Below are positions 1,525-31,821 of a DNA stretch of 55,717 nucleotides, piece by piece. The position numbers were made by a program, and so were the translations under genes. Within the stretch, counting starts at the first letter, position 1. Each line of letters starts with the position of its first letter. The notes below the pieces were generated by a model. The model worked only from the letters and a program-made list of their open reading frames with translations, searched no databases and was not told the DNA's origin. Origin of the DNA: Candidatus Micrarchaeota archaeon (GTDB lineage: Archaea; Micrarchaeota; Micrarchaeia; Burarchaeales; Fermentimicrarchaeaceae); assembly GCA_026396385.1 (NCBI GenBank), contig JAPLWV010000026.1, positions 1-55,717 of the forward strand, in the 5' to 3' direction.

Positions 1525-1830
1525 TTGACAAAGAAACTCACAATTGACTCAGCGTTCAAGATAGAGAACATAGTAGCTTCAGCCAATTTGGGAGTGGAGC
1601 TTGACCTTTATACCATTGCCAGCAAAATCAGGAACATAGAGTATGAGCCAGAGCAGTTCCCAGGGGCAATTCTTAAGCTGAAAGAACCAAAGGCATCTCT
1701 TCTGCTCTTCAAGAACGGCAAGGTAATATGCACAGGCTGCAAGAATGAGAGAGAAGTGAAGTATGCCCTGGAGCGGGCGATAAAGCTTCTGGCTTCCTAT
1801 GCAAAACCTCTGCCAGTCCCCAAGAAGTGA
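1525..1830 (+). CDS. Single-repeat (half) TATA-box-binding protein homolog
   Basis: The 101-aa ORF aligns along its length to one TBP repeat: KIENIVASANLGVELDL..EYEPEQFPGAILKLKEPKASLLLFKNGKVICTGCK..ALERAIKLL. Both Phe positions (EQFPG, LLLF) are retained. A canonical TBP has two such repeats (~180 aa). Confidence 0.8.
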   Translation: MTKKLTIDSAFKIENIVASANLGVELDLYTIASKIRNIEYEPEQFPGAILKLKEPKASLLLFKNGKVICTGCKNEREVKYALERAIKLLASYAKPLPVPKK

Positions 1831-2582: not shown

Positions 2583-2606
2583 CTCATTAACAGATTCGTC
2601 CTGCTG

Positions 2607-2632
2607 TTTTAAATATTCAAAATGAGCAATTT
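2607..2632 (+). promoter_or_regulatory. Motif B copy (TTTTAAATATTCAAAATGAGCAATTT): TATA box plus conserved downstream block
   Basis: Same cassette as seven other copies. Here the motif-internal ATG (2622) is in frame with the MVEEK start at 2646. Confidence 0.6.
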
Positions 2633-4739
2633 AATAGGCGAACTTATGGTAGAGGAGAAAAATAAGAAACCGCCTGTGACAACGGTCGACTCTAAGGAGA
2701 TACAAAAAGAAGTTGCAAAGCTGCCTATCCAAATGGGGCCAAAGGAGAAAAGTATAAAACAGGAAATCCCGGAGCCTAGGATAAAGGACGTTAAGGGACT
2801 CTCTCAAGAAACAAGGGAACTTTACGAGTCAGTATTAGAAAAAATAAAGCTTGAAAAAAATGATAAGAACATCCTCCTTCTCGATAAATTGGCTGAAGCA
2901 TCACGCGAAGCAGGCTTCAACCAGCATGGCCTATTCAAGAATGCACTTCCAGAACTGACAGGAGTGATAAATAATACTGAAGATTTGAAAGAAATTGCGA
3001 AACTTGGAGAGGCGGCATGCAAGGCGGGTATTAATCCATCTGAAATATTCACATATGCACTGCCTGCACTGGCAGGAATTATAAGGAATTCAGAAGATTT
3101 GAAAGAAATTGTCAAGTTAGGAGAGGCAGCATATGAAGCAGGCTTCGATGCGCGTAAACTATTCAAATATGGACTGCCTCCACTGGCAGAAGCAGGGCTG
3201 ATAAAGAATAGTGACTATTTGAAGGAAATTGTAAGACTTGGGGAGGTGTCATACAAAGCAGACTTCGATCCATGCAGTCTATTCGAACATGCGCTTCCGT
3301 TAATGGCAGAAGCAGGGCTGATAAGGAATACAGAAGATTTGAAAGAAATTGTGAAATTGAGAGAGGCGGCATGCAAAGCAGGCTTCCATCAATCTGACAT
3401 ATTCAGATATGCGCTCCCTGCAATGGCAAAAGCAGGGCTGATAGAGAATACGGAAGACTTGAGGGAAGTTGTGAAATTGGGGAAGGCGTCATACGAAGCA
3501 GGCTTCGATCCATCCGACATATTCACAAATGCGCTTCCGGCAATGTTAGAAGCAGGGCTGATAGAGAATACGGAGGATTTGAAAGAACTTGTAAGGCTGG
3601 GAGAAGTATCATATGAAGCAGGCTTCAATCCATCTGACATATTCAAATATGCGCTTCCGGAAATGGTGGGGGCAGGGCTGATAGAGAGTATGGAAGATTT
3701 GAAAGAAATTGTGAAATTGGGGGAGGCAGCATGCAAAGCAAGCATCAATCCATGTAGTATATTCGAACATACACTGCCTGCGCTGGCAGAAGCAGGAAAG
3801 ATAGAGAATACAGAGGATATGAAGATTATGGGGTATGAGCTGGTAAAGCTCGGGGAGGCGGCACGCAAAGCAGGCTTCAATCCATCTTCCTTATTTGAGC
3901 ACGTGCTACCTGCACTGGCAAAGGCGGGAATCATAAAGGATAAAGAATATTTGAAGGAAATTGTAAGACTTGGGGAAGTATCATACGAAGCAGGCTTCGA
4001 TCCATATCAGGTATTCAAATATGCGCTCCCTGCAATGGCAGAAGCAGGGCTGATAAAGAATACAGAAGATTTGAAAGAAATTGTGAAATTGAGAGAGGCG
4101 GCATGCAAAGCAGACTTCAATCCGTCTCACCTATTTGAACATGCACTGCCTGCACTGGCAGAGGCAGTAAAGATAGAAAATACGGAGGATATGGGAGTTA
4201 TAGGAAATGAACTGGTAAAGCTTGGGGAGGCGGCACGCAAAGCAGGCTTCAATCCATCTCCACTATTCGAGTACGTAGTACCCGCATTGGCGAGAGGAAG
4301 AGTTGTAAAGAATAGTGAATATCTGAAGGAAGTTGTGAAGCTGGGGGAGGCAGCATACGAGGCGGGCATAGATCCAACTAAACTATTCGAGTATGCGCTT
4401 CCTCCACTGGGAGGAATGATAGATAATATTGAAGATTTGAAAGAGATTGTGAAGCTGGGAGAGGCGGCATGCAAAGCAGACTTCAATCCATCCCCGATAT
4501 TTGAATATGCAGTACCCGCATTGGCGAGAGCAGGGCTGGTGGATAATATTGACTATTTGAAAGAACTTGTGAAACTGGGGGAGGCAGCATATGAAGCAGG
4601 TATCAATCCATATAAGCTGTTTAGATATACGCTCCCGGCAATGGCAAGGGCAGGAAAGATAGATAATACAGAAGAACTGAGAGTTAGAGGGGATGAACTG
4701 ATAAAGCGGGAAGCATCACGCAATGGATCGAATCAATGA
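2622..4739 (+). CDS. Tandem-repeat protein: about 15 copies of a ~38-47-aa predicted helical repeat, function unknown
   Basis: Repeat consensus (D/Y)LKEIVKLGEAA(C/Y)(K/E)AGFNPSxxFxYALPA(L/M)AEAGLIxNTE. Substitutions cluster at a few positions. The start may be ATG 2646 (MVEEKNKK) if transcription begins downstream of the motif B TATA. Confidence 0.85.
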   Translation: MSNLIGELMVEEKNKKPPVTTVDSKEIQKEVAKLPIQMGPKEKSIKQEIPEPRIKDVKGLSQETRELYESVLEKIKLEKNDKNILLLDKLAEASREAGFNQHGLFKNALPELTGVINNTEDLKEIAKLGEAACKAGINPSEIFTYALPALAGIIRNSEDLKEIVKLGEAAYEAGFDARKLFKYGLPPLAEAGLIKNSDYLKEIVRLGEVSYKADFDPCSLFEHALPLMAEAGLIRNTEDLKEIVKLREAACKAGFHQSDIFRYALPAMAKAGLIENTEDLREVVKLGKASYEAGFDPSDIFTNALPAMLEAGLIENTEDLKELVRLGEVSYEAGFNPSDIFKYALPEMVGAGLIESMEDLKEIVKLGEAACKASINPCSIFEHTLPALAEAGKIENTEDMKIMGYELVKLGEAARKAGFNPSSLFEHVLPALAKAGIIKDKEYLKEIVRLGEVSYEAGFDPYQVFKYALPAMAEAGLIKNTEDLKEIVKLREAACKADFNPSHLFEHALPALAEAVKIENTEDMGVIGNELVKLGEAARKAGFNPSPLFEYVVPALARGRVVKNSEYLKEVVKLGEAAYEAGIDPTKLFEYALPPLGGMIDNIEDLKEIVKLGEAACKADFNPSPIFEYAVPALARAGLVDNIDYLKELVKLGEAAYEAGINPYKLFRYTLPAMARAGKIDNTEELRVRGDELIKREASRNGSNQ
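2877..4700 (+). repeat. In-frame ~114-141-bp tandem DNA repeats within the repeat-protein gene, with a higher-order ~3-unit duplication
   Basis: Recurring gaagatttgaaagaaattgtgaa..ggagaggcggcatgcaaagcaggcttcaatcc blocks. The units containing TEDMKIMGYELVKLGEAARKAGFNPS and TEDMGVIGNELVKLGEAARKAGFNPS indicate duplication of a multi-repeat block. Confidence 0.85.
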
Positions 4740-4785
4740 TTTAATCCTGCAACACCGGAACTGACAGACCCAGTAGCATGAAGCC

Positions 4786-4802
4786 AAAGCAAGCTTAAAT
4801 AT
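4786..4802 (+). promoter_or_regulatory. Motif A copy 5 (ATGAAGCCAAAGCAAGCTTAAATAT)
   Basis: About 30 nt upstream of ATG 4824. Confidence 0.5.
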
Positions 4803-4823
4803 CGGAAAAGGCATAATTTAATC

Positions 4824-5888: not shown

Positions 5889-5916
5889 GCGGCAAGGCTT
5901 GATGTAAAATGAACCC

Positions 5917-5933
5917 AAAGCAATCTTAATATA
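5917..5933 (+). promoter_or_regulatory. Motif A copy 6 (ATGAACCCAAAGCAATCTTAATATA)
   Basis: About 30 nt upstream of the start at 5957. Confidence 0.5.
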
Positions 5934-5956
5934 TCTCCGAACATCAAGTATGACTG

Positions 5957-7393
5957 ATGGTCTCTTTAACATTCTTCGGCGGGGTCGGGGAGATAGGCGG
6001 CAACAAGATACTGCTGAAGGACAGGAAGACAAGGATATGGCTTGACTTCGGGATGAGCTTCTCCAAATCTGCCGAGTTCTACTCGGATTTTCTCGGTCCC
6101 AAGAAGTGCAATGGAATCGGGGATTACATCGAACTGGGGCTTGTCCCGGACATCAAGGGGCTTTACCGGGAGGACTACCTGAAGAAGATGGGCAGGGACA
6201 AGGAGGAAAGCGGGTTTGACGGGATCCTGCTCTCCCACGCGCATCTTGACCACAACGGGCATTTGGACCTCGTGAGGCCTGACATACCGCTATACTGCTC
6301 CCAGGGTTCGAAATGCATAATGGAGATGATTGACACAACAAGCGGCGGCGAGTTCCTGAGGGAAAAGGTAAGCTTCCGCTTCGTCCCGAAGAAGAGGGGG
6401 GAAGGTTTGAAGCGGCTGGACAGCAGGGAGCCTGAAGGGATTGTTGAGAGAGTTGTCAACGTGGTTGAAAAGCCGTTTAAAGTCGGGGATTTGGAAGTCA
6501 CGCCAATGCCTGTGGACCATTCCCTTCCGGGTGCATTGGCATTCGCAATAGAGACAAGCGAAGGTGCAGTCATCTACTCCGGGGATTTCAGGTTCCACGG
6601 CCTTAATGAGAAGAAGACAAGGGAATTCGTTGAAAAAGCCTCTGGGTTTGAGCCGGCTGCATTCATCTGCGAAGGAACCAGGATTGACAGCAACAAGACA
6701 GAGACTGAGAGGGATGTTTACAGCACGGTGACGAAGTTCTGCAAGGACTGCGAGGCCCTCATAATCGCAAACTACCCCCTCCGTGATACCGACAGGATGA
6801 CGACTTTCCTGAATGCTGCAAAGGACCATGACAGGAAGCTGGTGGTAAACCTGAAGCAGGCTTTCCTGCTTGATGCGTTCGGGAAGGCAGGGCAGGAAGC
6901 TCCAAGGCTGGAGGATGTCTCTATCTACATTCCGCGCAAGTCCTGGGGCCTGGTGACAGAAGACATGGATCCTGACCTGGTGCACGGTGATTATGAAACA
7001 TGGGAGTGCCAGTTTATTGATGCTGGCAACTCGATAACCTGCGAGGAGCTCAGGAAGAACCAAGATGAATATCTGTGGCACTGCGACTTCTTCGAGCTTA
7101 AGGAGCTTATTGACGTGAAGCCGATGAAGGCAAGCAAGTACGTGTGGAGCGTTACCGAGCCATTTGACGTGGTAATGGAGCTTGACGAGCAGATAGTGAT
7201 GAACTGGCTCGCGCATTTCAACATAACCGAGATAACCAGGTCGCATGTGTCCGGGCATGCAAACGGGCGGGATCTGAAGGAGACGATTGACGCGATTAAA
7301 CCGAAGAAGCTCTTTGCAGTGCATACGGAGCATCCTGAGATGTTTGAGAATGTGAGAGTGGTGGAGAAGGGGAAGGAGTGCGAGGTTGGGTGA
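5957..7393 (+). CDS. Metallo-beta-lactamase/beta-CASP ribonuclease, archaeal RNase J-like
   Basis: N-terminus FFGGVGEIGGNKILL. HxHxDH motif LLSHAHLDHNGHL. C-terminal HVSGHANGRDLKETIDAIKPKKLFAVHTEH matches the RNase J SGHA...P...HGE pattern. Size (478 aa) fits archaeal RNase J. Confidence 0.7.
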   Translation: MVSLTFFGGVGEIGGNKILLKDRKTRIWLDFGMSFSKSAEFYSDFLGPKKCNGIGDYIELGLVPDIKGLYREDYLKKMGRDKEESGFDGILLSHAHLDHNGHLDLVRPDIPLYCSQGSKCIMEMIDTTSGGEFLREKVSFRFVPKKRGEGLKRLDSREPEGIVERVVNVVEKPFKVGDLEVTPMPVDHSLPGALAFAIETSEGAVIYSGDFRFHGLNEKKTREFVEKASGFEPAAFICEGTRIDSNKTETERDVYSTVTKFCKDCEALIIANYPLRDTDRMTTFLNAAKDHDRKLVVNLKQAFLLDAFGKAGQEAPRLEDVSIYIPRKSWGLVTEDMDPDLVHGDYETWECQFIDAGNSITCEELRKNQDEYLWHCDFFELKELIDVKPMKASKYVWSVTEPFDVVMELDEQIVMNWLAHFNITEITRSHVSGHANGRDLKETIDAIKPKKLFAVHTEHPEMFENVRVVEKGKECEVG

Positions 7394-7452
7394 GGGATGT
7401 AACCATGGTTACAATCGCAGTATTTGATTGACTGGTATTTCTATAAGGTGTT

Positions 7453-7782
7453 GTGAAGAGGAAATTTGAGTTTGAGGGTTATAATGCCGTTGTTGAGAAA
7501 GAGAGAATGAAGGGTGGGAGGGCGGATGTTGCGGTATTTCCTACTGAGAAAAGCCCCCATAAGAAGAGAATTGCAGTTGAAGTTACTTTTGAGTACAAGA
7601 ATGCTGTTTCTAATATAAAGAAAGATTTTAAAGATGGGTTTGATGAGGTAATAATATTATACGAGGAGGAGTATACTAAGAGCTTCGTGGAGTCACATAT
7701 TAAAATGGAACTTGAGAAAGAGGAGCAGGAGAGAGTAACGTTCGAGGATGTAAGAGGATATGCGGCATACGTGAGCGTGTGA
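7453..7782 (+). CDS. Small hypothetical protein, possibly PD-(D/E)xK nuclease-fold
   Basis: 109 aa, GTG start. GRADVAVFP ... RIAVEVTFEYK loosely fits a D...ExK arrangement. First gene of a tightly packed three-gene set. Confidence 0.3.
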   Translation: MKRKFEFEGYNAVVEKERMKGGRADVAVFPTEKSPHKKRIAVEVTFEYKNAVSNIKKDFKDGFDEVIILYEEEYTKSFVESHIKMELEKEEQERVTFEDVRGYAAYVSV

Positions 7783-7791
7783 GGTGAACAG

Positions 7792-8157
7792 ATGGATTCA
7801 GAAGCTACTTTGGATGACTTAAAGAAGACCGTTAAAAAGTTTTGCGAAGATAGGGACTGGGATCAGTACCACAATGCGAAAGATTTAGCAATAGGGATTA
7901 TAACCGAATCATCAGAACTGTTGGAGCACTTCCGCTTCAAGTCAGAAAAGGAGATAGAGGAGATGTTCAAGGACTCAAGGAAAAAAAGTGAGATTTCAGA
8001 GGAGATGGCGGACGTATTCTACTTCCTCCTTAGACTGGCTCAGAAGTATGATATAGACCTCGGTTCTGAGCTGAGTAAGAAAATAGCACACAATGAGAAG
8101 AAATACCCAGTTGAAAAATCAAGAGGCTCTAATAAAAAATATACGGAGCTGCTGTAG
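7792..8157 (+). CDS. MazG-like nucleoside triphosphate pyrophosphohydrolase (DCTPP1/all-alpha NTP-PPase type)
   Basis: FCEDRDWDQYHNAKDLAIGIITESSELLEHFRFK and EEMADVFYFLLRLAQKYDIDL give the ExxE and EExxD metal-binding helices. KIAHNEKKYP tail. Confidence 0.8.
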   Translation: MDSEATLDDLKKTVKKFCEDRDWDQYHNAKDLAIGIITESSELLEHFRFKSEKEIEEMFKDSRKKSEISEEMADVFYFLLRLAQKYDIDLGSELSKKIAHNEKKYPVEKSRGSNKKYTELL

Positions 8158-8159
8158 AT

Positions 8160-10013
8160 ATGAAATTATATGAAGGAGATTTAGAGCAATTCAGAGAAGA
8201 CGTTCTTAATAATAGAATCGCAGATATAATGCGGAATAAAGCCAATGAGTATAAAGTAAATGTTAGCAGATCCGAGTATAGGTCTTGGCAGATTTCTCCA
8301 AGAGTCTTTAAAGATGCAGTTTCTCAGCTCCATAATAACAAGATTATACTCGAATACAGATTCCCTAACTATGGCGGAAGAATAGACGTCATTCTTTTTG
8401 GTAAGCATAACGGGTCGGACCAGGTAGTCATTACAGAATTGAAGCAATGGTCAAATGATAGTGTAAGCGACTGTGAGGATGAGGGAAGCGTGATAGCAGA
8501 GATTAATGGGCATATGGTGAAAATGGCTCATCCATCATCACAGGTTGAGGGTTATTACCTTAGCTTAATAGACAACTTACAAGTTTTTGATGAGAAACCA
8601 GAGATAAAATTGCATGCTTCTGCATACTGCCATAACTACTCTAGAGAGAATGACAAGGTGCTATACCAGGATAAATTCAAAGAAATAACCGACAAATATC
8701 CACTATTTACAAAAGAGGACAATGCAAAACTTGGCGAATATCTCAGAGACAGGCTGGTAGACGATAACGGGATAGAAGTCTTTAATCGCTTCGTAAACAG
8801 TCCTGTAAGGCCATCTAAAGGTTTAATACAGCACGTAGGGGACATGATTAACAAGCAACAGATATTTAATTTAATTGACGAGCAGATACCGGCACGCAAT
8901 GCAATTATCAGCAGGGCAAAGGAATTGGCAAAGTCTGGTAAGAAATTCGTGATAATTGTAAAGGGAGGGCCCGGCACTGGAAAGTCTGTCATTGCACTGG
9001 AGACAATGGCAGAACTCCTGAGGAAAGGGAAGAACGTATTTTATGCAACAGGCTCATCCGCATTTACAAATACTCTTAGGAAGGTTGCGGGTAAAAGGGC
9101 AAAAGACAGGTTCAAGTATTTCTTCAGCTTTACGCGTCATAAAGAAAATGAGATTGATGTGCTAGTGTGCGATGAGGCACATAGGCTAAGGAAGAATAGC
9201 GCAGATTACGGAGTTCCTTCCCATCTCAAATCAGAGTTGCCGCAGGTTGAAGACTTGATACGGCCAGCTAGACTAACTGTCTTCTTCATAGATGAGCATC
9301 AGATAGTAAGGCCGAGTGAAGTTGGGGATGTTGCACTGATTAGACAGGCTGCTTTAAAGCTTAATGCTGAAGTAGAGGAATTTGATTTAAAAACTCAATT
9401 TAGATGCGGAGGTTCAGAAGCCTATTTGCAATGGCTGGAGAATACTCTTGGCATAACAGAATCCGAGGTGCGGATGCTGGGTAAAAATGAACAGATGGAA
9501 TTTAAAATATTTGACAGCCCAGAAGCGCTTAGGGATGCGATATACGAGAAGAACAAGGCAAGGCCTAATTTCGCTAGAATCGCAGCAGGTTTCTGCTGGC
9601 CATGGAGTAAGCCGAACGCTGATGGTAGTTTAGTTAATGATGTAAAAATAGGAAGTTTTGAGATGCCGTGGGAGAGGAAGGACGAGTTTTGGAAATGGGC
9701 CACAGATGAGAGCGGAATGGAGCAGGTTGGAACAGTTTATACTGCACAGGGGTTTGAATTTGACTACATTGGGGTTATTTTTGGGAAGGATTTGATTTAT
9801 GACAAGGAGAATAACACTTGGAAGAGCGATCCGAAGAGTTCGCATGACAGCATGATAAAAAGGAATAATGAAACTTTGACAAAACACTTGAAAAACGTAT
9901 ATCGCGTTTTGATGTCAAGGGCGCATAAGGGAGTTTACATCTATTTTATGGATAAGGATACGGAGAACTTCTTTAAGTCTAGAGTAGAAAGCTACAACCC
10001 GCCCCCAAGGTGA
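8160..10013 (+). CDS. DUF2075-type (Schlafen-helicase-like) P-loop ATPase with an N-terminal PD-(D/E)xK nuclease-like domain
   Basis: N-terminal GRIDVILFG..VVITELKQW (D..ExK). Walker A VKGGPGTGKSV. Walker B VLVCDEAHRL. C-terminal YTAQGFEFDYIGVIFG and VYRVLMSRAHKGVYIY, typical of DUF2075/SF1-like proteins. Starts 3 nt after the MazG stop. Confidence 0.75.
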   Translation: MKLYEGDLEQFREDVLNNRIADIMRNKANEYKVNVSRSEYRSWQISPRVFKDAVSQLHNNKIILEYRFPNYGGRIDVILFGKHNGSDQVVITELKQWSNDSVSDCEDEGSVIAEINGHMVKMAHPSSQVEGYYLSLIDNLQVFDEKPEIKLHASAYCHNYSRENDKVLYQDKFKEITDKYPLFTKEDNAKLGEYLRDRLVDDNGIEVFNRFVNSPVRPSKGLIQHVGDMINKQQIFNLIDEQIPARNAIISRAKELAKSGKKFVIIVKGGPGTGKSVIALETMAELLRKGKNVFYATGSSAFTNTLRKVAGKRAKDRFKYFFSFTRHKENEIDVLVCDEAHRLRKNSADYGVPSHLKSELPQVEDLIRPARLTVFFIDEHQIVRPSEVGDVALIRQAALKLNAEVEEFDLKTQFRCGGSEAYLQWLENTLGITESEVRMLGKNEQMEFKIFDSPEALRDAIYEKNKARPNFARIAAGFCWPWSKPNADGSLVNDVKIGSFEMPWERKDEFWKWATDESGMEQVGTVYTAQGFEFDYIGVIFGKDLIYDKENNTWKSDPKSSHDSMIKRNNETLTKHLKNVYRVLMSRAHKGVYIYFMDKDTENFFKSRVESYNPPPR

Positions 10014-10017
10014 GTGA

Positions 10018-10131
10018 GTAAGAATCAATGACGAAATAAACAAAACCGATGCAGAGATAGATGAACTGGTTTATAAATTATATAGGATTACAGATGAAGA
10101 AAAGAAAATAATTAAAGATAGCTTGAAATAG
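10018..10131 (+). pseudogene. Relic of the C-terminal tail of a restriction-modification (type IIG/TaqI_C-like) methyltransferase
   Basis: Reads VRINDEINKTDAEIDELVYKLYRITDEEKKIIKDSLK*. The xIDxLVYxLYxLTxEExxxI tail is characteristic of many R-M/BREX methyltransferases. There is no upstream body, and the frame differs from the DUF2075 gene. Confidence 0.55.
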
Positions 10132-10162
10132 GTTATAAAATATTGCAGTAGATAAGTTAACC

Positions 10163-10639
10163 ATGGCTATTATTTTCGTCGACCAGAGCGGAAAAGTGGA
10201 GAAGACAAATAAGCATACCGTCATAGCGACAAGCGCATCGGAAAAAAAGAGCTATACGGTAATGCTCCCAAGCTATTGGAAGAAGAGAATATGCGAGGAG
10301 ATAAAGCATTATCCCAGTGCTGCCCGCCATAGAAAGGTTCCCACTGTGAAGATTTTCTCGTTCTGCGTCTATCTTGCCATGCCGTATCTCAGAAAAGATG
10401 ATTCAATCGTGATAGATACAGAATATGCGGGCAAATCGAATGAAATCAAAAGCCAGCTTCTGGAACTCATAAGAGGGAAATATCCGGAATTCAAAAAAGA
10501 GCAGATAACCTCCCTCCAGATTGGGAAGGATATATACGTCCACAAGTTAGCAAATGAAACGTACAGGGGCATTAGAAAGCCGGATAAGGTTATAGATGAA
10601 ACAGACTTGTCCAGATTGTTTGGAAAGAAAAAGAACTAA
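10163..10639 (+). CDS. Hypothetical protein
   Basis: 158-aa ORF, AT-rich. The N-terminus IIFVDQSGK is faintly reminiscent of DUF3800-type starts, but I recognise no clear family. Confidence 0.5.
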   Translation: MAIIFVDQSGKVEKTNKHTVIATSASEKKSYTVMLPSYWKKRICEEIKHYPSAARHRKVPTVKIFSFCVYLAMPYLRKDDSIVIDTEYAGKSNEIKSQLLELIRGKYPEFKKEQITSLQIGKDIYVHKLANETYRGIRKPDKVIDETDLSRLFGKKKN

Positions 10640-10739
10640 GTGGCTCAGCGGATTTTCGCCGCCTCAAGTGGGTTTACCTTTGCGTCGTAGGCACCTCGAT
10701 TTCTCGAGTGTGTTGGCTACGGATCGGTAAACCAGCCAC
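10640..10739 (+). ncRNA. Candidate ~100-nt structured RNA or DNA element (nested helices). The strand is assumed; the helices would also form on the other strand.
   Basis: Nested complementarity read directly: GTGGC/GCCAC (outer), GCGG-attttcg-CCGC hairpin, GGTTTACC/GGTAAACC, CGTAG/CTACG, CTCGA-tttc-TCGAG. Starts 1 nt after the stop codon at 10637-10639. Confidence 0.35.
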
Positions 10740-11255
10740 GTACTAGTATGTGTAAATATATGTATATATACCTTACTGGGAAATATAAACTGGAGTATAT
10801 ATTACTGGTAACACGCTAGTTTCACGCTAGAATTTCATCAGACTTTTACTAGAGTTTAACCAGTTATGTATAATATAACATCACTGAAATCCTCGAAACC
10901 GTCCGGTTTCTGAAAAAAAGCGGTAAAATCCGGCAGGATAGGCAGTTTTCTCACAATTTCTAAAAAACTCAGAAAAAGCCGGTCTAGACCGGAGAAGCCG
11001 GTTCAGGCGTGAGCCTGCTTTGCCTGCGCCAAAGCGCAGCAAATGGCATTTCGACCGTTTCACGAGGAAGCAGAAAAACAGGTGAAATGGTAAAGCCTGC
11101 TTCAGCGACGACAGCTTATTTTGAACAGGCTACCGTTTCGACCGATTCTACAGACGTATTTTATACCCGAACGGAATATGCAGAAATTGACGAACTGGTC
11201 TGCAAGCTGTGCGGGACCACTCGGCTTTAAAAAACAGGGAATCCATAATTCACGC

Positions 11256-11489: not shown

Positions 11490-12157
11490 TTATCCCTTCT
11501 TCATTCGCCTGAACTCCGAAAGCTCAACGGGCCTGGCGACCTCTATAAGCCTGTCGATCGCATCATTGATTGACTTCGCGTTTATCCCCATGATGTCGCC
11601 AATCACGTATTCATTCACCGGCCTGCCGGCCTTGTAGCAGGCATGGTATACCGCCGCAGCTGAGAGCGCCATGGGGTCGGAAACGGGCGTTTTCTTCCTC
11701 TTCTCGTATCTGGAGAGAGTGTCTTTCGCAATCCCTGCAACCTCCCCCTCATGCTTCCTGTCCAGCCAGCCGCTCTCCGCCAGGAAAGACACAGCAGAAT
11801 CAACGTAATCGGCCGGCTTCTCTATCATTTTCACATCTGTCATCTTCCTTGCTTTTTGCATCTCAGCCGGATCCACTGTCTGCCATATGTGCGCACCCCT
11901 GAGCAAGTCCACGGGGCATTTGTTGTTGTCCAGGGAGAGCTGCATTGCCACCCTCGCCTGGAGTTTGGGATTCAGGCCAAGCTTCTCAATCTTCTTGTAG
12001 AATTCGGAAGCATCGCCGATAATTGCTGCTATTTTTTCCTTACTCACAAACAATTTTGATTTTCCCTCGTGATAGGACTTAAGGGAGCCTTCAAGCAGCT
12101 TATCAAACGTCCTCGCTGGCGTTTCATCCATCTTCTTAATGGATATGGTTTCGCTCA
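11490..12157 (-). CDS. TFB/TFIIB-like cyclin-fold protein lacking the N-terminal zinc ribbon
   Basis: The likely start is ATG 12157 (MSETISIKK), about 30 nt downstream of a motif B TATA; the ORF-track start at 12257 would include the promoter. PADYVDSAVSFLAESG...DPMALSAAAVYHACYKAGRPVNEYVIGDIMGINAKSINDAIDRL matches the TFB core cyclin-repeat pattern. Confidence 0.5.
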
Positions 12158-12170
12158 TATGATCACGACA

Positions 12171-12196
12171 ATATTGCTCATTTTGAATATTTAAGC
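12171..12196 (-). promoter_or_regulatory. Motif B copy (gene orientation GCTTAAATATTCAAAATGAGCAATAT)
   Basis: Conserved cassette upstream of the TFB-like gene. Confidence 0.6.
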
Positions 12197-12263
12197 ATAA
12201 GCCCAAGATGCTTCGGAAATGCCAAGAAAAGCCAAACTTTAGCGCATGATTAATCAAAGAACC

Positions 12264-12776
12264 TCAGTGCTGGATTTTTAGTTTTTTCGCAGCCTGGTTC
12301 TCCTCTTTAATCCTGGCACTCCCCGCTTTTTCCAAGTTTTTAATTTCCTCATCCATTTCATGCACCCCGGCTGCCTTGCCGAAACCGTAACCAATCAGGG
12401 CAACGCCGGCTGCGAATGCAAGCTCCAATGCATTTTGCGGAAGGCCCAGCCTAAGCAGTTCACCCGCGGTTGCCGTAATGCCAACTGCAGCGCATGCAAT
12501 TACCCCGGCAGTTATATAGTTCGCACTGCGCGCAATTTTATCCTTCGCAATCTCCCGCAGCTCTTTTAGCTGCTCCTCAAGCGTCTTTACCTTACTCTCC
12601 ACTTTCTCTTTTAATTTCTGCCCGACTGTTTTCTTCTCGACTACTGTCTCCTTTGGCCCTTTTTGGATAGCCGGAAGCTTTGCAGCTTTAGATGTCCCCT
12701 CAAAGCTGGTTGTTATATCTCCTGAAAATTTATGGGGCTTTTCCTCAACTTTCTTCTCTACCATAAACATCACCAC
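12264..12776 (-). CDS. Coiled-coil membrane protein with an MVEKK-type N-terminus, function unknown
   Basis: 170 aa. Two hydrophobic helices (ANYITAGVIACAAVGITA, LAFAAGVALIGYGFG). The N-terminus MVEKKVEEK..AKLPAIQKGPKE is shared with the repeat protein at 2622. The probable start is ATG 12764. Confidence 0.6.
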   Translation of the reverse strand: MVMFMVEKKVEEKPHKFSGDITTSFEGTSKAAKLPAIQKGPKETVVEKKTVGQKLKEKVESKVKTLEEQLKELREIAKDKIARSANYITAGVIACAAVGITATAGELLRLGLPQNALELAFAAGVALIGYGFGKAAGVHEMDEEIKNLEKAGSARIKEENQAAKKLKIQH

Positions 12777-12777
12777 T

Positions 12778-12803
12778 AAAATTGCTCATTTTCAATATTT
12801 AAA
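12778..12803 (-). promoter_or_regulatory. Motif B copy (GTTTAAATATTGAAAATGAGCAATTT)
   Basis: Conserved cassette. The motif-internal ATG opens a 14-codon out-of-frame uORF. Confidence 0.6.
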
Positions 12804-12854
12804 CATAAGCCATAGCTGCTTTACCTTCGTCCTTTTCCAAAATAAGCTTTTAGG

Positions 12855-13301
12855 TTACCCAAGGGGTTGTTTTTCCAGCAATAACTGAGGTACTGTTTTC
12901 CGAATTCTTTTGTTACGTTCCTCCAACTCCTTGTTATGTTCCTTCAGCCATTCTTTTACTTGGGGGTTTTTTAGGAAATCCCCAATCTCTTTTTCCAAAT
13001 TCTTGGGTTCGGCGTTCCACAGGTGGACGGCATCTGAGTAAACTTGGATTTTATTTAATTCTCCACTCTGTGAGAAATCCAACTTGACATCTTGTGCAAG
13101 TTTTTCCTTACCACTAATACGACTACGCCACTGAAGCGTTCCATCGTCCGTAAGATGTATCATTATTTCTCTTGTGTCTCTATCGTTCGTTTTTCCCCAA
13201 CTCAATTCCTTTCCAACCCACGTCCTTTCTTTATTTAGTTCAAGCTTGACACCCTGAAACGTTATCTCTTCCGCCTTCTTTTCTACCATAAACACCACCA
13301 A
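12855..13301 (-). CDS. Hypothetical protein, paralog of the 31327-31821 product
   Basis: VKLELNKERTWVGK..IHLTDDGTLQWRSR..VKLDFSQSGELNKI..LWNAEPKNLEKEIGDFL..VKEWLKEHNK aligns with IELELTKDKSWAGR..VHFKEGGTITWCSR..VSLNFKQDGKLNRI..LWSANIEELERKMREFL..VKEWLKERNK. The probable start is ATG 13289. Confidence 0.6.
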   Translation of the reverse strand: MVVFMVEKKAEEITFQGVKLELNKERTWVGKELSWGKTNDRDTREIMIHLTDDGTLQWRSRISGKEKLAQDVKLDFSQSGELNKIQVYSDAVHLWNAEPKNLEKEIGDFLKNPQVKEWLKEHNKELEERNKRIRKTVPQLLLEKQPLG

Positions 13302-13303
13302 TT

Positions 13304-13329
13304 AAATTGCTCATTTTGAGTATTTAAGC
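13304..13329 (-). promoter_or_regulatory. Motif B copy (GCTTAAATACTCAAAATGAGCAATTT)
   Basis: Conserved cassette. Confidence 0.6.
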
Positions 13330-13368
13330 ATAACCTCAAGAGACACCTTGGTTTCTTCTAACTCCCTG

Positions 13369-14190
13369 CTATTGCATTTTCTTCTTCTGAGCAAGCTTCA
13401 GGGAATGCTGCGCATCCAAATCGTCGGGGTTAAGCTCAATTACTTTCCTGAAGTCCCGTATAGCCTCGTCATACTCTTCCTTATCGAGATGATCAGTGCC
13501 TCTGTTGTCATAAGCAATCGAGTCAATAACCTCAAGCTTGGAAGTTATGGCATAGATCACACGGCGTTTCTTCGTCAGCCAATCAACAGAGCAATAGCCC
13601 GGCTTTGAGTCTTGGGTTGTTTCAAAGAAGAAATCCTCGGTTCTGATACGTGTATGCTCAGGAACTATAACGAACTCAACCGGCACGCCCAATTCCCTTC
13701 CGACATCAAAGACAAGCGTGGAGCAGTTATCACAAGCCCACAAGCCCTTATCAAGGGACTCATACAGGAAGCCAACCCTGTTCTCTTCGTACTTTACACC
13801 CAAATCATACAAGTTGCCGTATAGTATGCCCCAGATTCCTGTTATGAAATCCTCCTGCAGCTGCTTCTTCCCTTCCTTTGTAAGCCCCTCGTAGGTGTTT
13901 TTGCCAGTCTTAGTGTCATAGCCGGATACTCCTTCCCCCTTCAGTATGCCTGCAACTGAGTCAACCAGGCTCAGGTACATATCTGTATATTTCTCACGCT
14001 TGCTCTGGGGCTTAAATTCCAGATCTACCTTAAGCCTCCTTGCCCCGGCATACCCCTCAGCATCAAAACGCCTTTCGGCATGAGGCGCTCTCCCAAGTTT
14101 ATCAAGCGCCAAATTTGCCCATGGATTCCCTTCCCCTGTCTTTAGTTCATCTGCTGCTTTGTATGCGCCGCCCATGCTGAAATTGCTCAT
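13369..14190 (-). CDS. Transglutaminase-like cysteine-protease-fold protein with a C-terminal TPR motif
   Basis: LWACDNCSTLVFDVGRELGVPVEFVIVPEHTRIRT fits the Cys..His core of the transglutaminase-like superfamily. The C-terminal YDNRGTDHLDKEEYDEAIRDFRKVIELNPDD is a TPR. The ORF-track start 14190 is the motif-internal ATG; ATG 14175 (MGGAYK) is more likely. Confidence 0.5.
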   Translation of the reverse strand: MSNFSMGGAYKAADELKTGEGNPWANLALDKLGRAPHAERRFDAEGYAGARRLKVDLEFKPQSKREKYTDMYLSLVDSVAGILKGEGVSGYDTKTGKNTYEGLTKEGKKQLQEDFITGIWGILYGNLYDLGVKYEENRVGFLYESLDKGLWACDNCSTLVFDVGRELGVPVEFVIVPEHTRIRTEDFFFETTQDSKPGYCSVDWLTKKRRVIYAITSKLEVIDSIAYDNRGTDHLDKEEYDEAIRDFRKVIELNPDDLDAQHSLKLAQKKKMQ

Positions 14191-14205
14191 TTTCGATATT
14201 TAAAG
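14180..14205 (-). promoter_or_regulatory. Motif B copy (CTTTAAATATCGAAAATGAGCAATTT)
   Basis: Conserved cassette. Confidence 0.6.
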
Positions 14206-14225
14206 TCAGTGCCAAGGGAAACCGC

Positions 14226-15044
14226 TCACCCTTCGTCAGCCACTTCATCCTGTCTTTTAATCCACTTTTCGTAGGTTATGACTCCCCCAGCGGTTGCGTG
14301 CCTTACGTCTAGTAATTTTGCGTTTATGTTCCTCTCCGCACGTACGTCCCTTGCGCGTAGTGCCCCGCTTACGATTACATCCCTCCCCGCGTGTACGTCC
14401 CCGTCCGTGAGTATACGCTCCATGGTTATGTCCCCTCCTGCGCTTATGCTCCTGTCGTCACTGTCTACGTTTAGCCAGGAATCACTGTGTGCGTATATGT
14501 TCCGTCCGCGTATGTTTCCCCCTACATTCATGTGCCTATAAATTATGTCTCCTACTGTTACGTCTCCGTCCACTTGTACGTCCTCTCCGTCCATGTTTCC
14601 CCCTGCGGTTACGTTTCCTCTTATGTTTGTTTTCCCCCCCATTACGTCAAAATACGCTGTTACGTCTCCTCCCACGCTTAGGCCATATACTGCCATTACG
14701 CTGCTCATTGAGGTTATGTTCCCCCCTACGATTATGTGATTTGCGTTTACCACGTCCCCTGCGTGCATGTTCCCCCCTACGTTTAGGTCCCCCATCACTG
14801 CGTATCCCTCTAAGGTTAAGTTGCCTTTGACTGTCAGGTTAAATCTCTCCTTCCCCCGAATTTCGCCCTTCACTATCAGGTCCCCATCCACCACCATGTC
14901 CTTCTCCAATATCAGGTCTCCCTTTATGACTATCGCTCCACTATTCTTCCTTTCGTCTATTTTCGGGATTTTTTTAATCTTGTCCGTAATGTCTTTCTTA
15001 ATGTCTTCATTCGTTCTCACTTTTTCTACCATAAACATCAACAT
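14226..15044 (-). CDS. Beta-helical repeat protein, bactofilin/polymer-forming-cytoskeletal-like
   Basis: Dozens of short repeats of the type GDLxVxGxhxxGDVxV (DGDLIVKGEIRG, GDLNVGGNMHAGDVV, VGGDVTAYFDVMGG, GNVTAGGNMDGEDVQVDGDVTVGD...). MVEKV N-terminus. The probable start is ATG 15032. Confidence 0.5.
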   Translation of the reverse strand: MLMFMVEKVRTNEDIKKDITDKIKKIPKIDERKNSGAIVIKGDLILEKDMVVDGDLIVKGEIRGKERFNLTVKGNLTLEGYAVMGDLNVGGNMHAGDVVNANHIIVGGNITSMSSVMAVYGLSVGGDVTAYFDVMGGKTNIRGNVTAGGNMDGEDVQVDGDVTVGDIIYRHMNVGGNIRGRNIYAHSDSWLNVDSDDRSISAGGDITMERILTDGDVHAGRDVIVSGALRARDVRAERNINAKLLDVRHATAGGVITYEKWIKRQDEVADEG

Positions 15045-15046
15045 TA

Positions 15047-15072
15047 AAATTGCTCATTTTTGATATTTAAAA
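15047..15072 (-). promoter_or_regulatory. Motif B copy (TTTTAAATATCAAAAATGAGCAATTT)
   Basis: Conserved cassette. Confidence 0.6.
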
Positions 15073-15157
15073 TCAGCACCCAGAGAAACCAAATGGATTT
15101 CTCTTTCAAATCCAGCCCAGTCCATGGAAGAATTTACTTCATAAAAATACTTGGAGA

Positions 15158-15646
15158 CTAAACCCTAATTTCGTCCGTAAGTAGAAGAGTATTATTGATT
15201 CTTGTAAATACGAACCTCCTACTGCACCTCTTGCATTGAACTTCGCAAAAGTCAGGGGATAGCCTAAAACCCACTTTATGCCCCCATGTGACTTTTTTTA
15301 TCTTTTCGTTGCATGATGGGCACTTAACATTCTCCAACATCCAGTTGCTTATAGGACGGAAGAGAAAGGGAGCAAAGCGAGTAAACGAAAACAGAAAGAT
15401 AACCGCTTCTAATAGTAATAAGCCGTATATGATATCAGTTTGTTGAGATAAAGGAATAGCCGACCAAGAAAGCAGAGCAACTATAAGCAGAAGAGGCAAC
15501 AATAACAAAACAAGCAGATTAAGATAATACCTAAAAAATGCATTCGATGGTATCATATAATGCACAGTCCTCTTCCAGTCCCGGCCTCCCCAAAAAGTCG
15601 CTATTGCCGCAACATTCATCGAATCTTTAAGTTCCTTTTCGTTCAT
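15158..15646 (-). CDS. Membrane protein with a C-terminal zinc ribbon
   Basis: Two long hydrophobic segments, then CPSCNEKIKK...CEVQCKRCSRRF (CxxC..CxxC). Confidence 0.55.
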   Translation of the reverse strand: MNEKELKDSMNVAAIATFWGGRDWKRTVHYMIPSNAFFRYYLNLLVLLLLPLLLIVALLSWSAIPLSQQTDIIYGLLLLEAVIFLFSFTRFAPFLFRPISNWMLENVKCPSCNEKIKKVTWGHKVGFRLSPDFCEVQCKRCSRRFVFTRINNTLLLTDEIRV

Positions 15647-15760
15647 GATAATCCACCAGACTAGCGTTAATATTTTTGTATATATTAACTTTGCTACCTT
15701 GCCAACCTAATATCCTCAGCCGTAACCGTCTTCCTGCATGCTTCGCCAGCTTCACCGAAT

Positions 15761-15786
15761 AAATTGCTAATTTCCGATATTTAAAG
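15761..15786 (-). promoter_or_regulatory. Motif B copy, degenerate (CTTTAAATATCGGAAATTAGCAATTT)
   Basis: Lies about 115 nt upstream of ATG 15646. A second TA-rich box sits closer to the start. Confidence 0.4.
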
Positions 15787-15890
15787 GAATGTTCGGAATG
15801 CGGAAAACACATTAATAAATATTGCTTGCATAAATCTAATGCTCGAGAGGTGAAGCAGAGTTAATCGGTTAGTTTGCGGAATCTACGAGA

Positions 15891-15980
15891 GGGCCCGTGG
15901 CGCAGCCTGGATAGCGCGGCAAGAGCAATCCCGTAAGCCTTCTAAGCTGAAGGTCGTGGGTTCAAATCCCACCGGGCCCG
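15891..15980 (+). tRNA. tRNA-Arg(UCU) carrying a ~15-nt insertion/intron at a non-canonical position, 5' of the anticodon loop
   Basis: GGGCCCG-TG-GCGC-AGCCTGGATA-GCGC-G-[33 nt instead of 17]-AGGTC-GTGGG-TTCAAAT-CCCAC-CGGGCCC-G. The loop CTTCTAA and 3' stem GCTGA parallel the tRNA-Arg(CCU) at 39497. Removing ~15 nt (AGAGCAATCCCGTAA) restores a GCAGC/GCTGA stem. Confidence 0.75.
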
Positions 15981-16028
15981 CTTTTATTTGGAGGGTAGAG
16001 GGAACCGATAGGTTCCTCTGGTGATAAG

Positions 16029-31201: not shown

Positions 31202-31295
31202 CGCAATGATTTCACTCTGGAACAATATTAACCTTTCCAGCCGGCACATCTCGCGTGAAAAACATCAACGGCATTTCCCTCTTCCGAGCGCTTGC

Positions 31296-31320
31296 TTTAA
31301 ATATCTGGAATGAGCTATTC
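31296..31320 (+). promoter_or_regulatory. Motif B copy, diverged (TTTAAATATCTGGAATGAGCTATTC)
   Basis: Same architecture as the island copies, upstream of the paralog at 31327. Confidence 0.5.
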
Positions 31321-31326
31321 TAGAGG

Positions 31327-31821
31327 GTGGTGCCTATGGCAGCGGGCCAAGGAGGAAGTGCAGTAGCACTAGCGCGAAAACCAATGCTGGATGATATTGA
31401 GCTTGAACTGACGAAGGATAAGAGTTGGGCAGGAAGACAAACAGTTGACGACGAAACTAGACACGTATCCGTACATTTCAAGGAAGGTGGAACAATAACC
31501 TGGTGTTCAAGACTTACGTGTTCAATTGATGATAAGGAACTATCAGATGTCAGCTTAAACTTCAAACAGGATGGAAAGCTGAATCGAATCGAACACGTTA
31601 TTCTGGATCGAGATAGGTTATGGAGTGCTAACATTGAAGAGTTAGAAAGAAAAATGAGGGAATTTTTGGATACCCTACCAGTAAAGGAATGGCTGAAGGA
31701 GAGGAATAAAACAAATGGAATAGATGTTGCAAAGGAAAAGGAAAGGAAGGGTGAACAAGAACGATTTAGAAAGCTGATGGAAGAACTTGGACCAAACGGG
31801 AGACGGCGGCTAGTTCATTGA
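31327..31821 (+). CDS. Hypothetical protein, paralog of the 12855-13301 product
   Basis: See the alignment under 12855-13301. Inserted between scpA and trm5 in opposite orientation. GTG 31327 or ATG 31336 start. Confidence 0.6.
   Translation: MVPMAAGQGGSAVALARKPMLDDIELELTKDKSWAGRQTVDDETRHVSVHFKEGGTITWCSRLTCSIDDKELSDVSLNFKQDGKLNRIEHVILDRDRLWSANIEELERKMREFLDTLPVKEWLKERNKTNGIDVAKEKERKGEQERFRKLMEELGPNGRRRLVH

Follow-up and report, generated by a model that had tools for sequence, protein, structure and literature searches.

A repeated promoter and translation-start module in a Micrarchaeota contig coincides with the borders of strain-variable genes

Why should nearly the same short piece of DNA recur before a series of mostly unrelated genes? 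The question is raised by contig JAPLWV010000026.1 of a Candidatus Micrarchaeota archaeon (assembly GCA_026396385.1), whose 55,717 nucleotides are referred to here as the window. It carries eight copies of an element, the cassette, in which a TATA box (TTTAAATA) is followed after five nucleotides by a ten-nucleotide block (AATGAGCAAT). An earlier description of this DNA, the original prediction, had taken the copies for the promoters of a regulon or, alternatively, for recombination sites or boundaries of a cassette array. Based on the evidence described below, it seems fairly likely (probability about 0.6) that the cassette is a class-specific archaeal promoter and translation-start module that defines an accessory-gene regulon, and that its repeated copies double as recombination junctions.

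The eight near-identical copies were confirmed and are well above chance expectation. A search of the window with the pattern TTTAAATANNNNNAATGAGCAAT, allowing up to three mismatches, recovered eight copies, compared to 0.10 expected from shuffled sequences, which never reached eight. The exact 10-mer AATGAGCAAT occurs six times in the window, each time 5 nt past a TATA box, and nowhere else in it. In a repeat search, a 26-nt core was found in six copies, which are the six consecutive minus-strand cassettes, a 44-nt version in five copies, and a 67-nt version extending into coding sequence in three. An nhmmer profile made from 38 unique cassettes recovered these eight sites with scores of 28-38 bits; the runner-up in the window reached only 5.8 bits (E 0.68), indicating that the cassettes form a discrete class and not a generic promoter. 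The block is not present at the housekeeping genes of the window (EF-1alpha, aminoacyl-tRNA synthetases, PolD and tRNAs), and there are no sites of intermediate score. Several promoters of the window have the same type of TATA box and the same arrangement of TATA box, Shine-Dalgarno (SD) sequence and ATG but lack the block, including those of tRNA-Asn, of the genes starting at 4824, 23610, 35696 and 39409, and of the Zn-ribbon gene starting at 15646. At positions 14-23 these promoters contain unrelated sequence. Likewise, the neighbour of the TFB-like gene in a related locus (L183) has this layout without the block. The cassette element is therefore a discrete promoter class, absent from other promoters of the same layout, and not the generic promoter consensus against which the original prediction had proposed to check it.

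When the cassette is numbered from the first T of the TATA box, positions 1-8 are the TATA box itself, 9-13 a variable spacer (consensus TYNAA) and 14-23 the block; about six variable nucleotides then lead to GGTGAT at 30-35 and an ATG at about 40, often in the context ATGGTAGAGAAG. Conserved A's before the block and TT after it form an extended block, (A)AAATGAGCAAT(TT), at positions 12-25. The block itself possesses symmetric arms, AAAAT and ATTTT, around an invariant asymmetric GAGCA. In all 38 unique cassettes the N5 spacing between TATA box and block is invariant and the orientation is the same; the spacer and flanking sequences vary, as does the distance between block and SD, which differs by 1, 3 or more nt among relatives. 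GGTGAT, which is complementary to the 3' end of archaeal 16S rRNA, is a predicted SD or initiator element. Overall, the element has the position and layout of a promoter plus translation start, as originally claimed, with an 8-bp A/T-rich TATA box in all copies and an ATG or SD beginning at position 30. The 6-7 nt upstream of the TATA box (GCTGGT, GCTTGC or GCTTATG) are not purine-rich, and to this extent they do not resemble a B recognition element (BRE).

The layout also points to a probable transcription start at about position 30. The start codon lies exactly at position 30 in two independent cassettes, c14204 (cassettes of the window are named after their start positions) and L171_4971, and the mature 5' end of tRNA-Asn is located 35 nt from the start of its own TTTAAATA TATA box. 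For tRNA-Arg a comparable distance of about 34 nt was read by eye from the sequence. This suggests a leader of about 10 nt for most cassette genes and a leaderless mRNA for the two. Relative to such a start, the block would sit at about -16 to -7 and the extended block at -18 to -5, which bears out the proposed placement between the TATA box and the probable start site. The role that had been assigned to an ATG within the motif, as a start codon or as part of a short upstream open reading frame (ORF), is ruled out by the variable spacing between block and SD (1-3 nt), and this ATG lies upstream of the probable transcription start. Specifically, the likelier start of the gene behind c14204 is the ATG at position 30, not the one within the motif.

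A second, rarer class of proximal block, AAGGCAT(A/G)AT, is found at window positions 4787-4826 and at L182 903 and L171 985. Its distance from the TATA box is nearly that of AATGAGCAAT, which gives a hint that the position carries class-specific information. In two cases this block is preceded by a BRE-like AAGCAA(T/G)C. An AAGCAAT-TATA-like module stands 41-42 nt upstream of c2608 and c15785, and a AAGCAATC-TTAATATA module is located 41 nt upstream of c2608.

As the original prediction had suggested, relatives were scanned for further members, and cassettes were found in four further metagenome-assembled genomes (MAGs) and on 13 metagenome contigs. In the genome collection, full cassettes with SD and ATG occur at six loci in four Micrarchaeota MAGs (JACCLF01, CAVXDX01, JAPLWT01 and JBFLVJ01); the pattern used there was over-degenerate and yielded mostly chance matches in AT-rich bacteria, so that the Micrarchaeota loci alone are informative. 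The more specific pattern applied to metagenomes yielded 13 loci with a GC content of 0.44-0.50, all of which contain full cassettes and several of which contain 2-5 copies. An additional locus that was fetched through its TBP gene, independently of the motif (L184), contains one cassette in 11 kb. Relatives were inspected as slices of at most 20 kb each. The cassette is conserved across genomes whose proteins are only 40-80% identical, and the same protein families recur behind it, among them the 13328, TFB-core and coiled-coil membrane families. Orthologous copies (c31296/L040_6847, c2608/L180_12844 and c15785/cassette 1 of L175) retain the block with different single substitutions while their spacers diverge. 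An invariant block amid diverged spacers and flanks argues for selection on the block. The motif thus stands at the equivalent position of the promoters that possess it, is absent from others, and is conserved in related genomes together with its target families. This conservation before partly the same gene families fits the regulon that was originally proposed. A dedicated trans-acting factor would bind the block and couple the cassette genes to one another.

The comparison of syntenic loci revealed that units are gained, lost and swapped at cassettes in near-identical strains. Contigs from at least five samples are nearly identical to the flanks of the window (94.6-98.6% nucleotide identity, with flanking proteins 89-100% identical), but the array between PolD/tRNA-Cys and the gene for a TFB-core-only protein is replaced wholesale. 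The array of the window (type A) has genes for 162, 268, 268, 144 and 166 aa, and that of type B, which was assembled independently in at least five samples, has genes for 164/166/193, 180, 202+167 and 186 aa. Homology between the window and type B is limited to 22404-15760 and 12194-8587. It stops 3 nt past the block of the first cassette (15760) and resumes at the TATA box of the last (12194). Compared to the 89-100% identity of the flanking genes, the array genes are absent or at most 60% identical in relatives, and only the coiled-coil membrane gene behind c12803 has a counterpart in types B and C, at 56-60% identity. Type C, represented by L180, contains the coiled-coil membrane unit and the TFB-core gene alone, with the break at 15761, and in L182 the tRNA-proximal cassette is joined directly to the TFB-core gene. 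The order PolD-tRNA-array-TFB core is kept down to 41% protein identity.

Beyond those at the first and last array modules, three further breakpoints also fall at modules. Cassette c2608 shares with L180 an 88-nt module, from AAGCAATCTTAATATAC through ATGG, and the break lies at the ATG of c2608. Past this module L180 has a beta-helix gene related to a gene of the window array, which replaces the repeat protein, and window positions 2650-11200 are wholly missing. In the Micrarchaeota MAG locus L040, which is syntenic with the window from 26.6 to 31.2 kb at about 80% nucleotide identity, scpB and scpA are separated by an inserted cassette unit of opposite orientation, and a second unit lies upstream of scpA. 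The c31296 unit is specific to the window; L040 lacks it and has another cassette unit at a distance of about 60 nt. Each of the eight copies in the window either borders or falls within a segment in which the window differs from its closest relatives. An assembly chimera at the repeats was considered and rejected, with the longest exact repeat between cassettes (about 16-26 nt, determined by eye) being well under assembly k-mers and with type B recurring in independent assemblies.

In the exchanged units a cassette precedes an ORF, in many cases with a 3' hairpin behind it, and the units form a head-to-tail series. The junctions have no fixed place within the cassette but range from about position 13 to 43. 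As a dispersed direct repeat of 45-90 nt, the module would allow homologous recombination without a dedicated recombinase. Recombination between modules, either within the genome or with DNA of relatives, may then delete, insert or swap units. Only part of the boundary alternative in the original prediction survives, namely the exchange of array content, with breakpoints that fall within the first and last cassettes. A dedicated recombination site is not supported, as the junctions vary and there is no integrase nearby.

The hairpin at the unit ends has the consensus GGGnGnTAGAr-GGAACC-N3-4-GGTTCC-TCT, lies 10 nt before the next TATA box and ends many units. In an alignment of 14 copies, 92.8% of the cells are paired, and compensatory variants (GAAACC/GGTTTC and GGGACC/GGTCCC) are present. 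The hairpin is not exclusive to cassette units since copies also occur between tRNA-Cys and the PolD operon and, in L172, flanking a toxin-antitoxin pair. The former copy marks the point of a 319-nt insertion in L180. The hairpin may serve 3'-end formation or stability, or may act as a recombination handle.

The last gene of the array encodes a putative reader of the block. Its product is a real TFB-core homologue. The AlphaFold2 (AF2) model (pLDDT 80.5) has an N-terminus folded as a short helix and beta hairpin, and its top Foldseek matches are all TFIIB/TFB cores (E about 1e-4, TM 0.5-0.63), including 1ais_B, 1d3u_B and 1vol_A over about 205-220 columns, Pyrococcus TFB-TBP-DNA complexes among them. 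The family profile reaches canonical TFBs at E about 5e-4, weak direct sequence matches are also found, and the family members P0141 and P0136 score 25.1 and 23.1 bits against the Pfam TFIIB repeat (cut-off 23.6 bits). The family comprises 13 clusters at E <= 1e-30, all but one of 220-245 aa (the exception has 156 aa), and one homologue is annotated as Micrarchaeota. The protein and its close family lack the Zn ribbon and B-reader, with no Zn_Ribbon_TF match. A cassette precedes the gene in all five lineages inspected (the window, L175, L180, L183 and L182), down to 41% protein identity. What makes the TFB-core-only protein the leading candidate for the regulator that reads the block is that its own gene stands behind such a cassette throughout and that the protein could bind to TBP-DNA but would not recruit RNA polymerase. 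Given this predicted docking, it would be expected to repress or gate the cassette promoters, including its own.

The opposite end of the variable island carries the gene for a single-domain TBP, which in the window, L175 and L180 is located no more than about 1 kb from a c2608-type cassette. Any link between this TBP and the cassette is speculative. A homologue search returned many single-domain TBPs of about 91-125 aa, many of them named Micrarchaeota, Ca. Burarchaeum or Ca. Gugararchaeum, and they are not truncations as they occur on contigs of up to 228 kb. Two-domain TBPs of 170-177 aa, with 65-71% identity, were found as well. That a homodimeric TBP may bind the palindromic TTTAAA box is an idea of separate interest.

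The genes behind the cassettes are small, heterogeneous and mostly lineage-specific accessory genes. Their products include the 697-aa repeat protein, coiled-coil proteins with a transmembrane hairpin, beta-helix, TPR, HEAT-like, lipoprotein, GNAT, APH-type kinase and TFE-like proteins, and several families of unknown fold (features of the window are listed in Table 1). The original prediction described them as unrelated to each other, which has to be amended for two pairs: the 13328 protein is a paralogue of the 31296 protein (40% identity, E 7e-24), and the 2608 and 12803 proteins have a common N-terminal region (E 1e-8). Overall, the proteins are mostly unrelated. The supposed transglutaminase/TPR protein (14204) does contain TPR repeats, but Pfam detected no transglutaminase domain. 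The Zn-ribbon gene does not belong to c15785, to which it had been assigned, as it lies 117 nt downstream with its own TATA box and SD; no ORF is present at the canonical distance from this cassette. The 13328 protein has a homologue in the LacPavin MAG (L108_4795) that is likewise cassette-driven. A homologue search with the 144-aa protein returned only itself, exact-protein look-ups for it and for P0005 gave no match, and its AF2 model (pLDDT 73.5) had no significant match in the PDB. PADLOC and PHROGs yielded no convincing match for any cassette protein, and Rfam no RNA family in the region.

Table 1. Cassettes, genes and neighbouring elements of the window.
Feature	Position	Strand	Description
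Single-domain TBP gene	1525..1830	+	101 aa, Pfam TBP E 2.8e-30
c2608	2594..2648	+	TATA 2608-2615, block AATGAGCAAT 2621-2630, ATG 2646
c2608 gene	2646-4739	+	697-aa protein, about sixteen repeats of about 40 aa
TFB-core-only protein gene	11490..12158	-	222 aa, two cyclin repeats; behind c12195
c12195	12156..12209	-	CTTAAATA 12195-12188, block 12182-12173, GTGATC SD, ATG 12158; last cassette of array
c12803 gene	12264-12764	-	coiled-coil protein with transmembrane hairpin
c12803	12762..12817	-	TATA 12803-12796, block 12790-12781, GGTGAT, ATG 12764
c13328 gene	12855-13289	-	144-aa protein, fold without known match
c13328	13287..13342	-	CTTAAATA 13328-13321, block 13315-13306, ATG 13289
TPR unit 3' hairpin	13339..13361	-	TTAGAA-GAAACC-AA-GGTGTC-TCT, 10 nt before next TATA
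c14204 gene	13369-14175	-	TPR protein
c14204	14173..14218	-	TATA 14204-14197, block 14191-14182, ATG 14175 (position 30), leaderless candidate
c15071 gene	14226-15032	-	beta-helix protein; 30%-identical relative behind c2608-type cassette in L180
c15071	15030..15085	-	TATA 15071-15064, block 15058-15049, ATG 15032
Zn-ribbon unit 3' hairpin	15082..15104	-	AGA-GAAATCC-ATTT-GGTTTC-TCT, 10 nt before next TATA
Zn-ribbon membrane protein gene	15158..15646	-	own block-less TATA/SD; inside strain-specific segment
c15785	15740..15799	-	TATA 15785-15778, block AATTAGCAAT 15772-15763; first in array, adjoins tRNA-Cys; orphaned
tRNA-Cys(GCA)	15891..15981	+	intron-containing; divergent from first cassette (c15785); conserved array anchor in all relatives
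Hairpin copy	15990..16019	+	GGTAGAG-GGAACC-GATA-GGTTCC-TCT; between tRNA-Cys and UPF0147/PolD operon
c31296	31281..31338	+	TATA 31296-31303, block AATGAGCTAT 31309-31318, ATG 31336
c31296 gene	31336-31821	+	161-aa paralogue of 13328 protein

Several considerations weigh against a regulated promoter whose copies serve as recombination junctions. The genes behind the cassettes lack a shared function by which co-regulation could be explained, and from the layout alone we infer the transcription start at about position 30. Unlike most archaeal operator sites, the block is no clean palindrome, only the arms AAAAT and ATTTT being symmetric, and the rigid TATA spacing is just as compatible with an element that the basal machinery reads. 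The conservation of the block is partly circular because relatives were found by exact matching to it. In addition, the 20 kb examined of Ca. Gugararchaeum contain a single-domain TBP gene and no cassette. With regard to recombination, the type A array was seen on a single contig, and the coincidence of breakpoints with cassettes (a rough, hand-calculated p of about 1e-3, from blastn breakpoints) may partly reflect a preference of breakpoints for intergenic DNA.

Among the other explanations, the one that carries the most weight, even if it is unlikely, is a constitutive, expression-optimised core promoter without a dedicated regulator. The block would then be a proximal or initially-melted-region element that is read by the TFB B-linker, TFE and RNA polymerase, and it would be combined with a TATA box of consensus sequence, a perfect SD and a favourable start context. 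This would account for the rigid N5 spacing and single orientation of all 38 copies, the asymmetry of the block, its 3' half, which is AT-rich as expected of a melted region, and the co-conserved GGTGAT and ATGG. However, it is difficult to reconcile with housekeeping genes of the window that do without the block and with the lack of intermediate-scoring sites, and the second block class, AAGGCATRAT, at nearly the same place suggests class-specific readers. Next in weight, and improbable, is an integron-like site-specific recombination, with the cassette, the hairpin or both as att sites and with units that are excised as circles and inserted at the tRNA-proximal cassette. Such a mechanism is unlikely because no integrase or recombinase is encoded within 10-20 kb in the window, L175 or L180, according to their Pfam lists, and because the junction positions vary. 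Each unit also has its own TATA box and SD, and the hairpin is a simple 6+3-bp stem without attC-like R/L boxes that ends only some units and also occurs away from cassettes. Against this must be set the head-to-tail units with a hairpin 10 nt before the next TATA box, the single units inserted at non-array sites in L040, and the nested content of the arrays, in which the TFB core is constant, types A, B and C have the coiled-coil unit in common, and the tRNA-proximal units differ from strain to strain. At the two unit insertions in L040, a comparison by eye with the empty sites of the window, made without a repeat-finding tool, revealed no target duplication or terminal inverted repeat, which counts against the integron-like reading and likewise against a transposable element or MITE.

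The cassettes could also be the promoters of an integrated mobile element or virus with TBP-like and TFB-like factors of its own, although this appears more improbable still. Both factors are indeed encoded in a 14-kb island, from the single-domain TBP gene to tRNA-Cys, with a GC content of 0.38-0.46 compared to 0.48-0.52; the island adjoins a tRNA gene and includes genes of defence and toxin-antitoxin type. However, genes for capsid, integrase or replication functions are lacking, and in the viral-contig scan the 41 matches were each single, AT-rich and without SD or ATG, and all look like chance. Moreover, cassettes are located elsewhere on the chromosome (at 31296, beside scpAB in L040 and beside tRNA-Val in L162 and L174), the order from PolD to the TFB core persists among distant relatives, and single-domain TBPs are widespread in Micrarchaeota. 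The least probable explanation, which can be given very little credence, is that the similarity is a relic of gene duplication and that a functionless block survives at the 5' ends of fast-diverging paralogues. The two related pairs of downstream proteins, the 67-nt repeat that enters coding sequence, the recurring MVEKK-type N-termini and a K/E-rich 'KIxERGPK / LPIQxGPKE' region are all consistent with it. Nevertheless, the proteins include non-paralogous folds (TFB core, beta-helix, TPR, HEAT-like, GNAT, TFE-like and APH kinase), and the block remained invariant while spacer and flanks diverged.

A class-specific promoter with a second role as recombination junction therefore remains the preferred interpretation, and it can be compared with known systems. 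In archaea, regulons with cis-elements between the TATA box and the start site include those of Phr, TrmB/TrmBL1, SurR, MDR1 and the Lrp-type repressors. Like regulons of the Phr, TrmB and SurR type, the cassettes present a short motif in many promoters, over the region where TFB and RNA polymerase are loaded, that is kept across related species. They differ in the absolutely rigid TATA spacing, in the asymmetric motif, in the conservation of a whole 45-90-nt module including SD and start context, and in having as members strain-variable accessory genes instead of a metabolic pathway. Haloarchaea possess multiple TFB/TBP pairs, and Sulfolobus Tfb3 is a truncated TFB that activates UV-induced genes with a shared promoter motif. 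The predicted link between a non-canonical, truncated TFB and motif-sharing promoters would be analogous to these. In contrast to Tfb3, which kept its N-terminus and lost the core, the TFB-core-only protein keeps the cyclin core and lacks the Zn ribbon and B-reader. Integron arrays, including the archaeal integrons reported in MAGs, consist of promoter-less cassettes served by one Pc promoter. Small unrelated genes on one strand that differ between close strains, a boundary element and a 3' hairpin are shared with them, but here there is no integrase, each unit has a promoter, the conserved element is that promoter, junctions are not fixed and the hairpin lacks attC architecture. The vsp, vlp and vsa loci of Mycoplasma are likewise variable and also consist of tandem genes with nearly identical 5' non-coding regions and first codons before divergent coding sequence; the cassette proteins, however, are mostly non-homologous and have no signal peptides, and there is no sign of inversion or phase switching. 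Finally, the mimivirus early motif AAAATTGA similarly defines an expression class by one short motif at a fixed place before many unrelated genes. The cassette differs in being located on a cellular chromosome, with no viral hallmark genes and no genuine viral-contig matches. The cassettes would thus amount to a promoter-motif regulon with an unusual second property, the probable use of its copies as recombination junctions of a flexible gene array.

Gene regulation in the rarely cultured DPANN archaea is almost unexplored, and a module of this kind is not known to have been reported from Micrarchaeota or any other members of this group. The cassette class provides a handle on it in the form of a predicted regulon, a predicted start site and a candidate non-canonical initiation factor. 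The link between promoter and gene swapping suggests that a reduced symbiont genome could keep interchangeable, co-regulated accessory genes without the machinery of a mobile element. Repeated 5' modules also serve as a warning in annotation because they mark flexible genome and possible break points in assembly and binning. A bolder and rather doubtful extension is that the promoter-ORF-hairpin units are self-contained exchangeable cassettes, an integrase-less analogue of an integron that is anchored at tRNA-Cys, and that all of them are read by the TFB-core-only protein, possibly together with the single-domain TBP on the TTTAAA box. If this is true, one cis-module would be both the regulatory address and the recombination handle of a DPANN symbiont's flexible genome.

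Some further observations concern individual cassette proteins and the anchor of the array. The repeats of the 697-aa protein have the consensus ...ALPxLAEAGLIxNTEDLKEIVKLGEAxxKAGFNPSxxF..., with weak helix-hairpin-helix-like Pfam matches only, and the protein is 97.6% conserved in a sister strain. In MAG JBFLVJ01 (L117 2018-2760) a block cassette drives a TFE-alpha-like protein, which on reading by eye has a winged helix, a Zn ribbon and a lysine-rich N-terminal extension. This protein would be a second transcription-initiation factor homologue under the cassette promoter class. The tRNA-Cys gene scores below the Rfam gathering threshold and is ambiguous in ARAGORN in the window; in L175 and L180 the call is tRNA-Cys. 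The core of the block, GAGCAAT, is also present in the intron/anticodon region of this gene, probably by coincidence. Adjacency to a tRNA was rejected as a rule, as it holds for two loci only (tRNA-Cys and tRNA-Val). AATATTAAYCTTTMC was also rejected as an insertion target: two matches compared to 0.38 expected, a number equalled by 5 of 100 shuffles, are not significant.

The surroundings of the cassettes contain additional conserved or variable elements. Near cassette units of relatives (L040 7570-7600, L180 about 10980-11100 and L172 1150-1180), a conserved element of roughly 30 nt, ATATCGGTGAAAACAGTGATTTCACYTCGGC, is located, as is a related sequence, GGGCATAA...CGGTGAAAACA; the window lacks the element. 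At L175 1600-2423, relatives have a 785-nt insertion between two copies of AAAGCAATCTTAATATACTC that encodes, as read by eye, a RelE/ParE-like toxin and a winged helix-turn-helix antitoxin; the window has a single copy of AAAGCAATCTTAATATACTC at 2566-2585, 23 nt upstream of c2608. The part of the low-GC island that separates the TBP gene from the array encodes, on the plus strand at 7792-10013, a MazG-like protein and a 617-aa helicase that matches the defence families PDC-S41, Nhi and AbiO (E 1e-23 to 7e-12).

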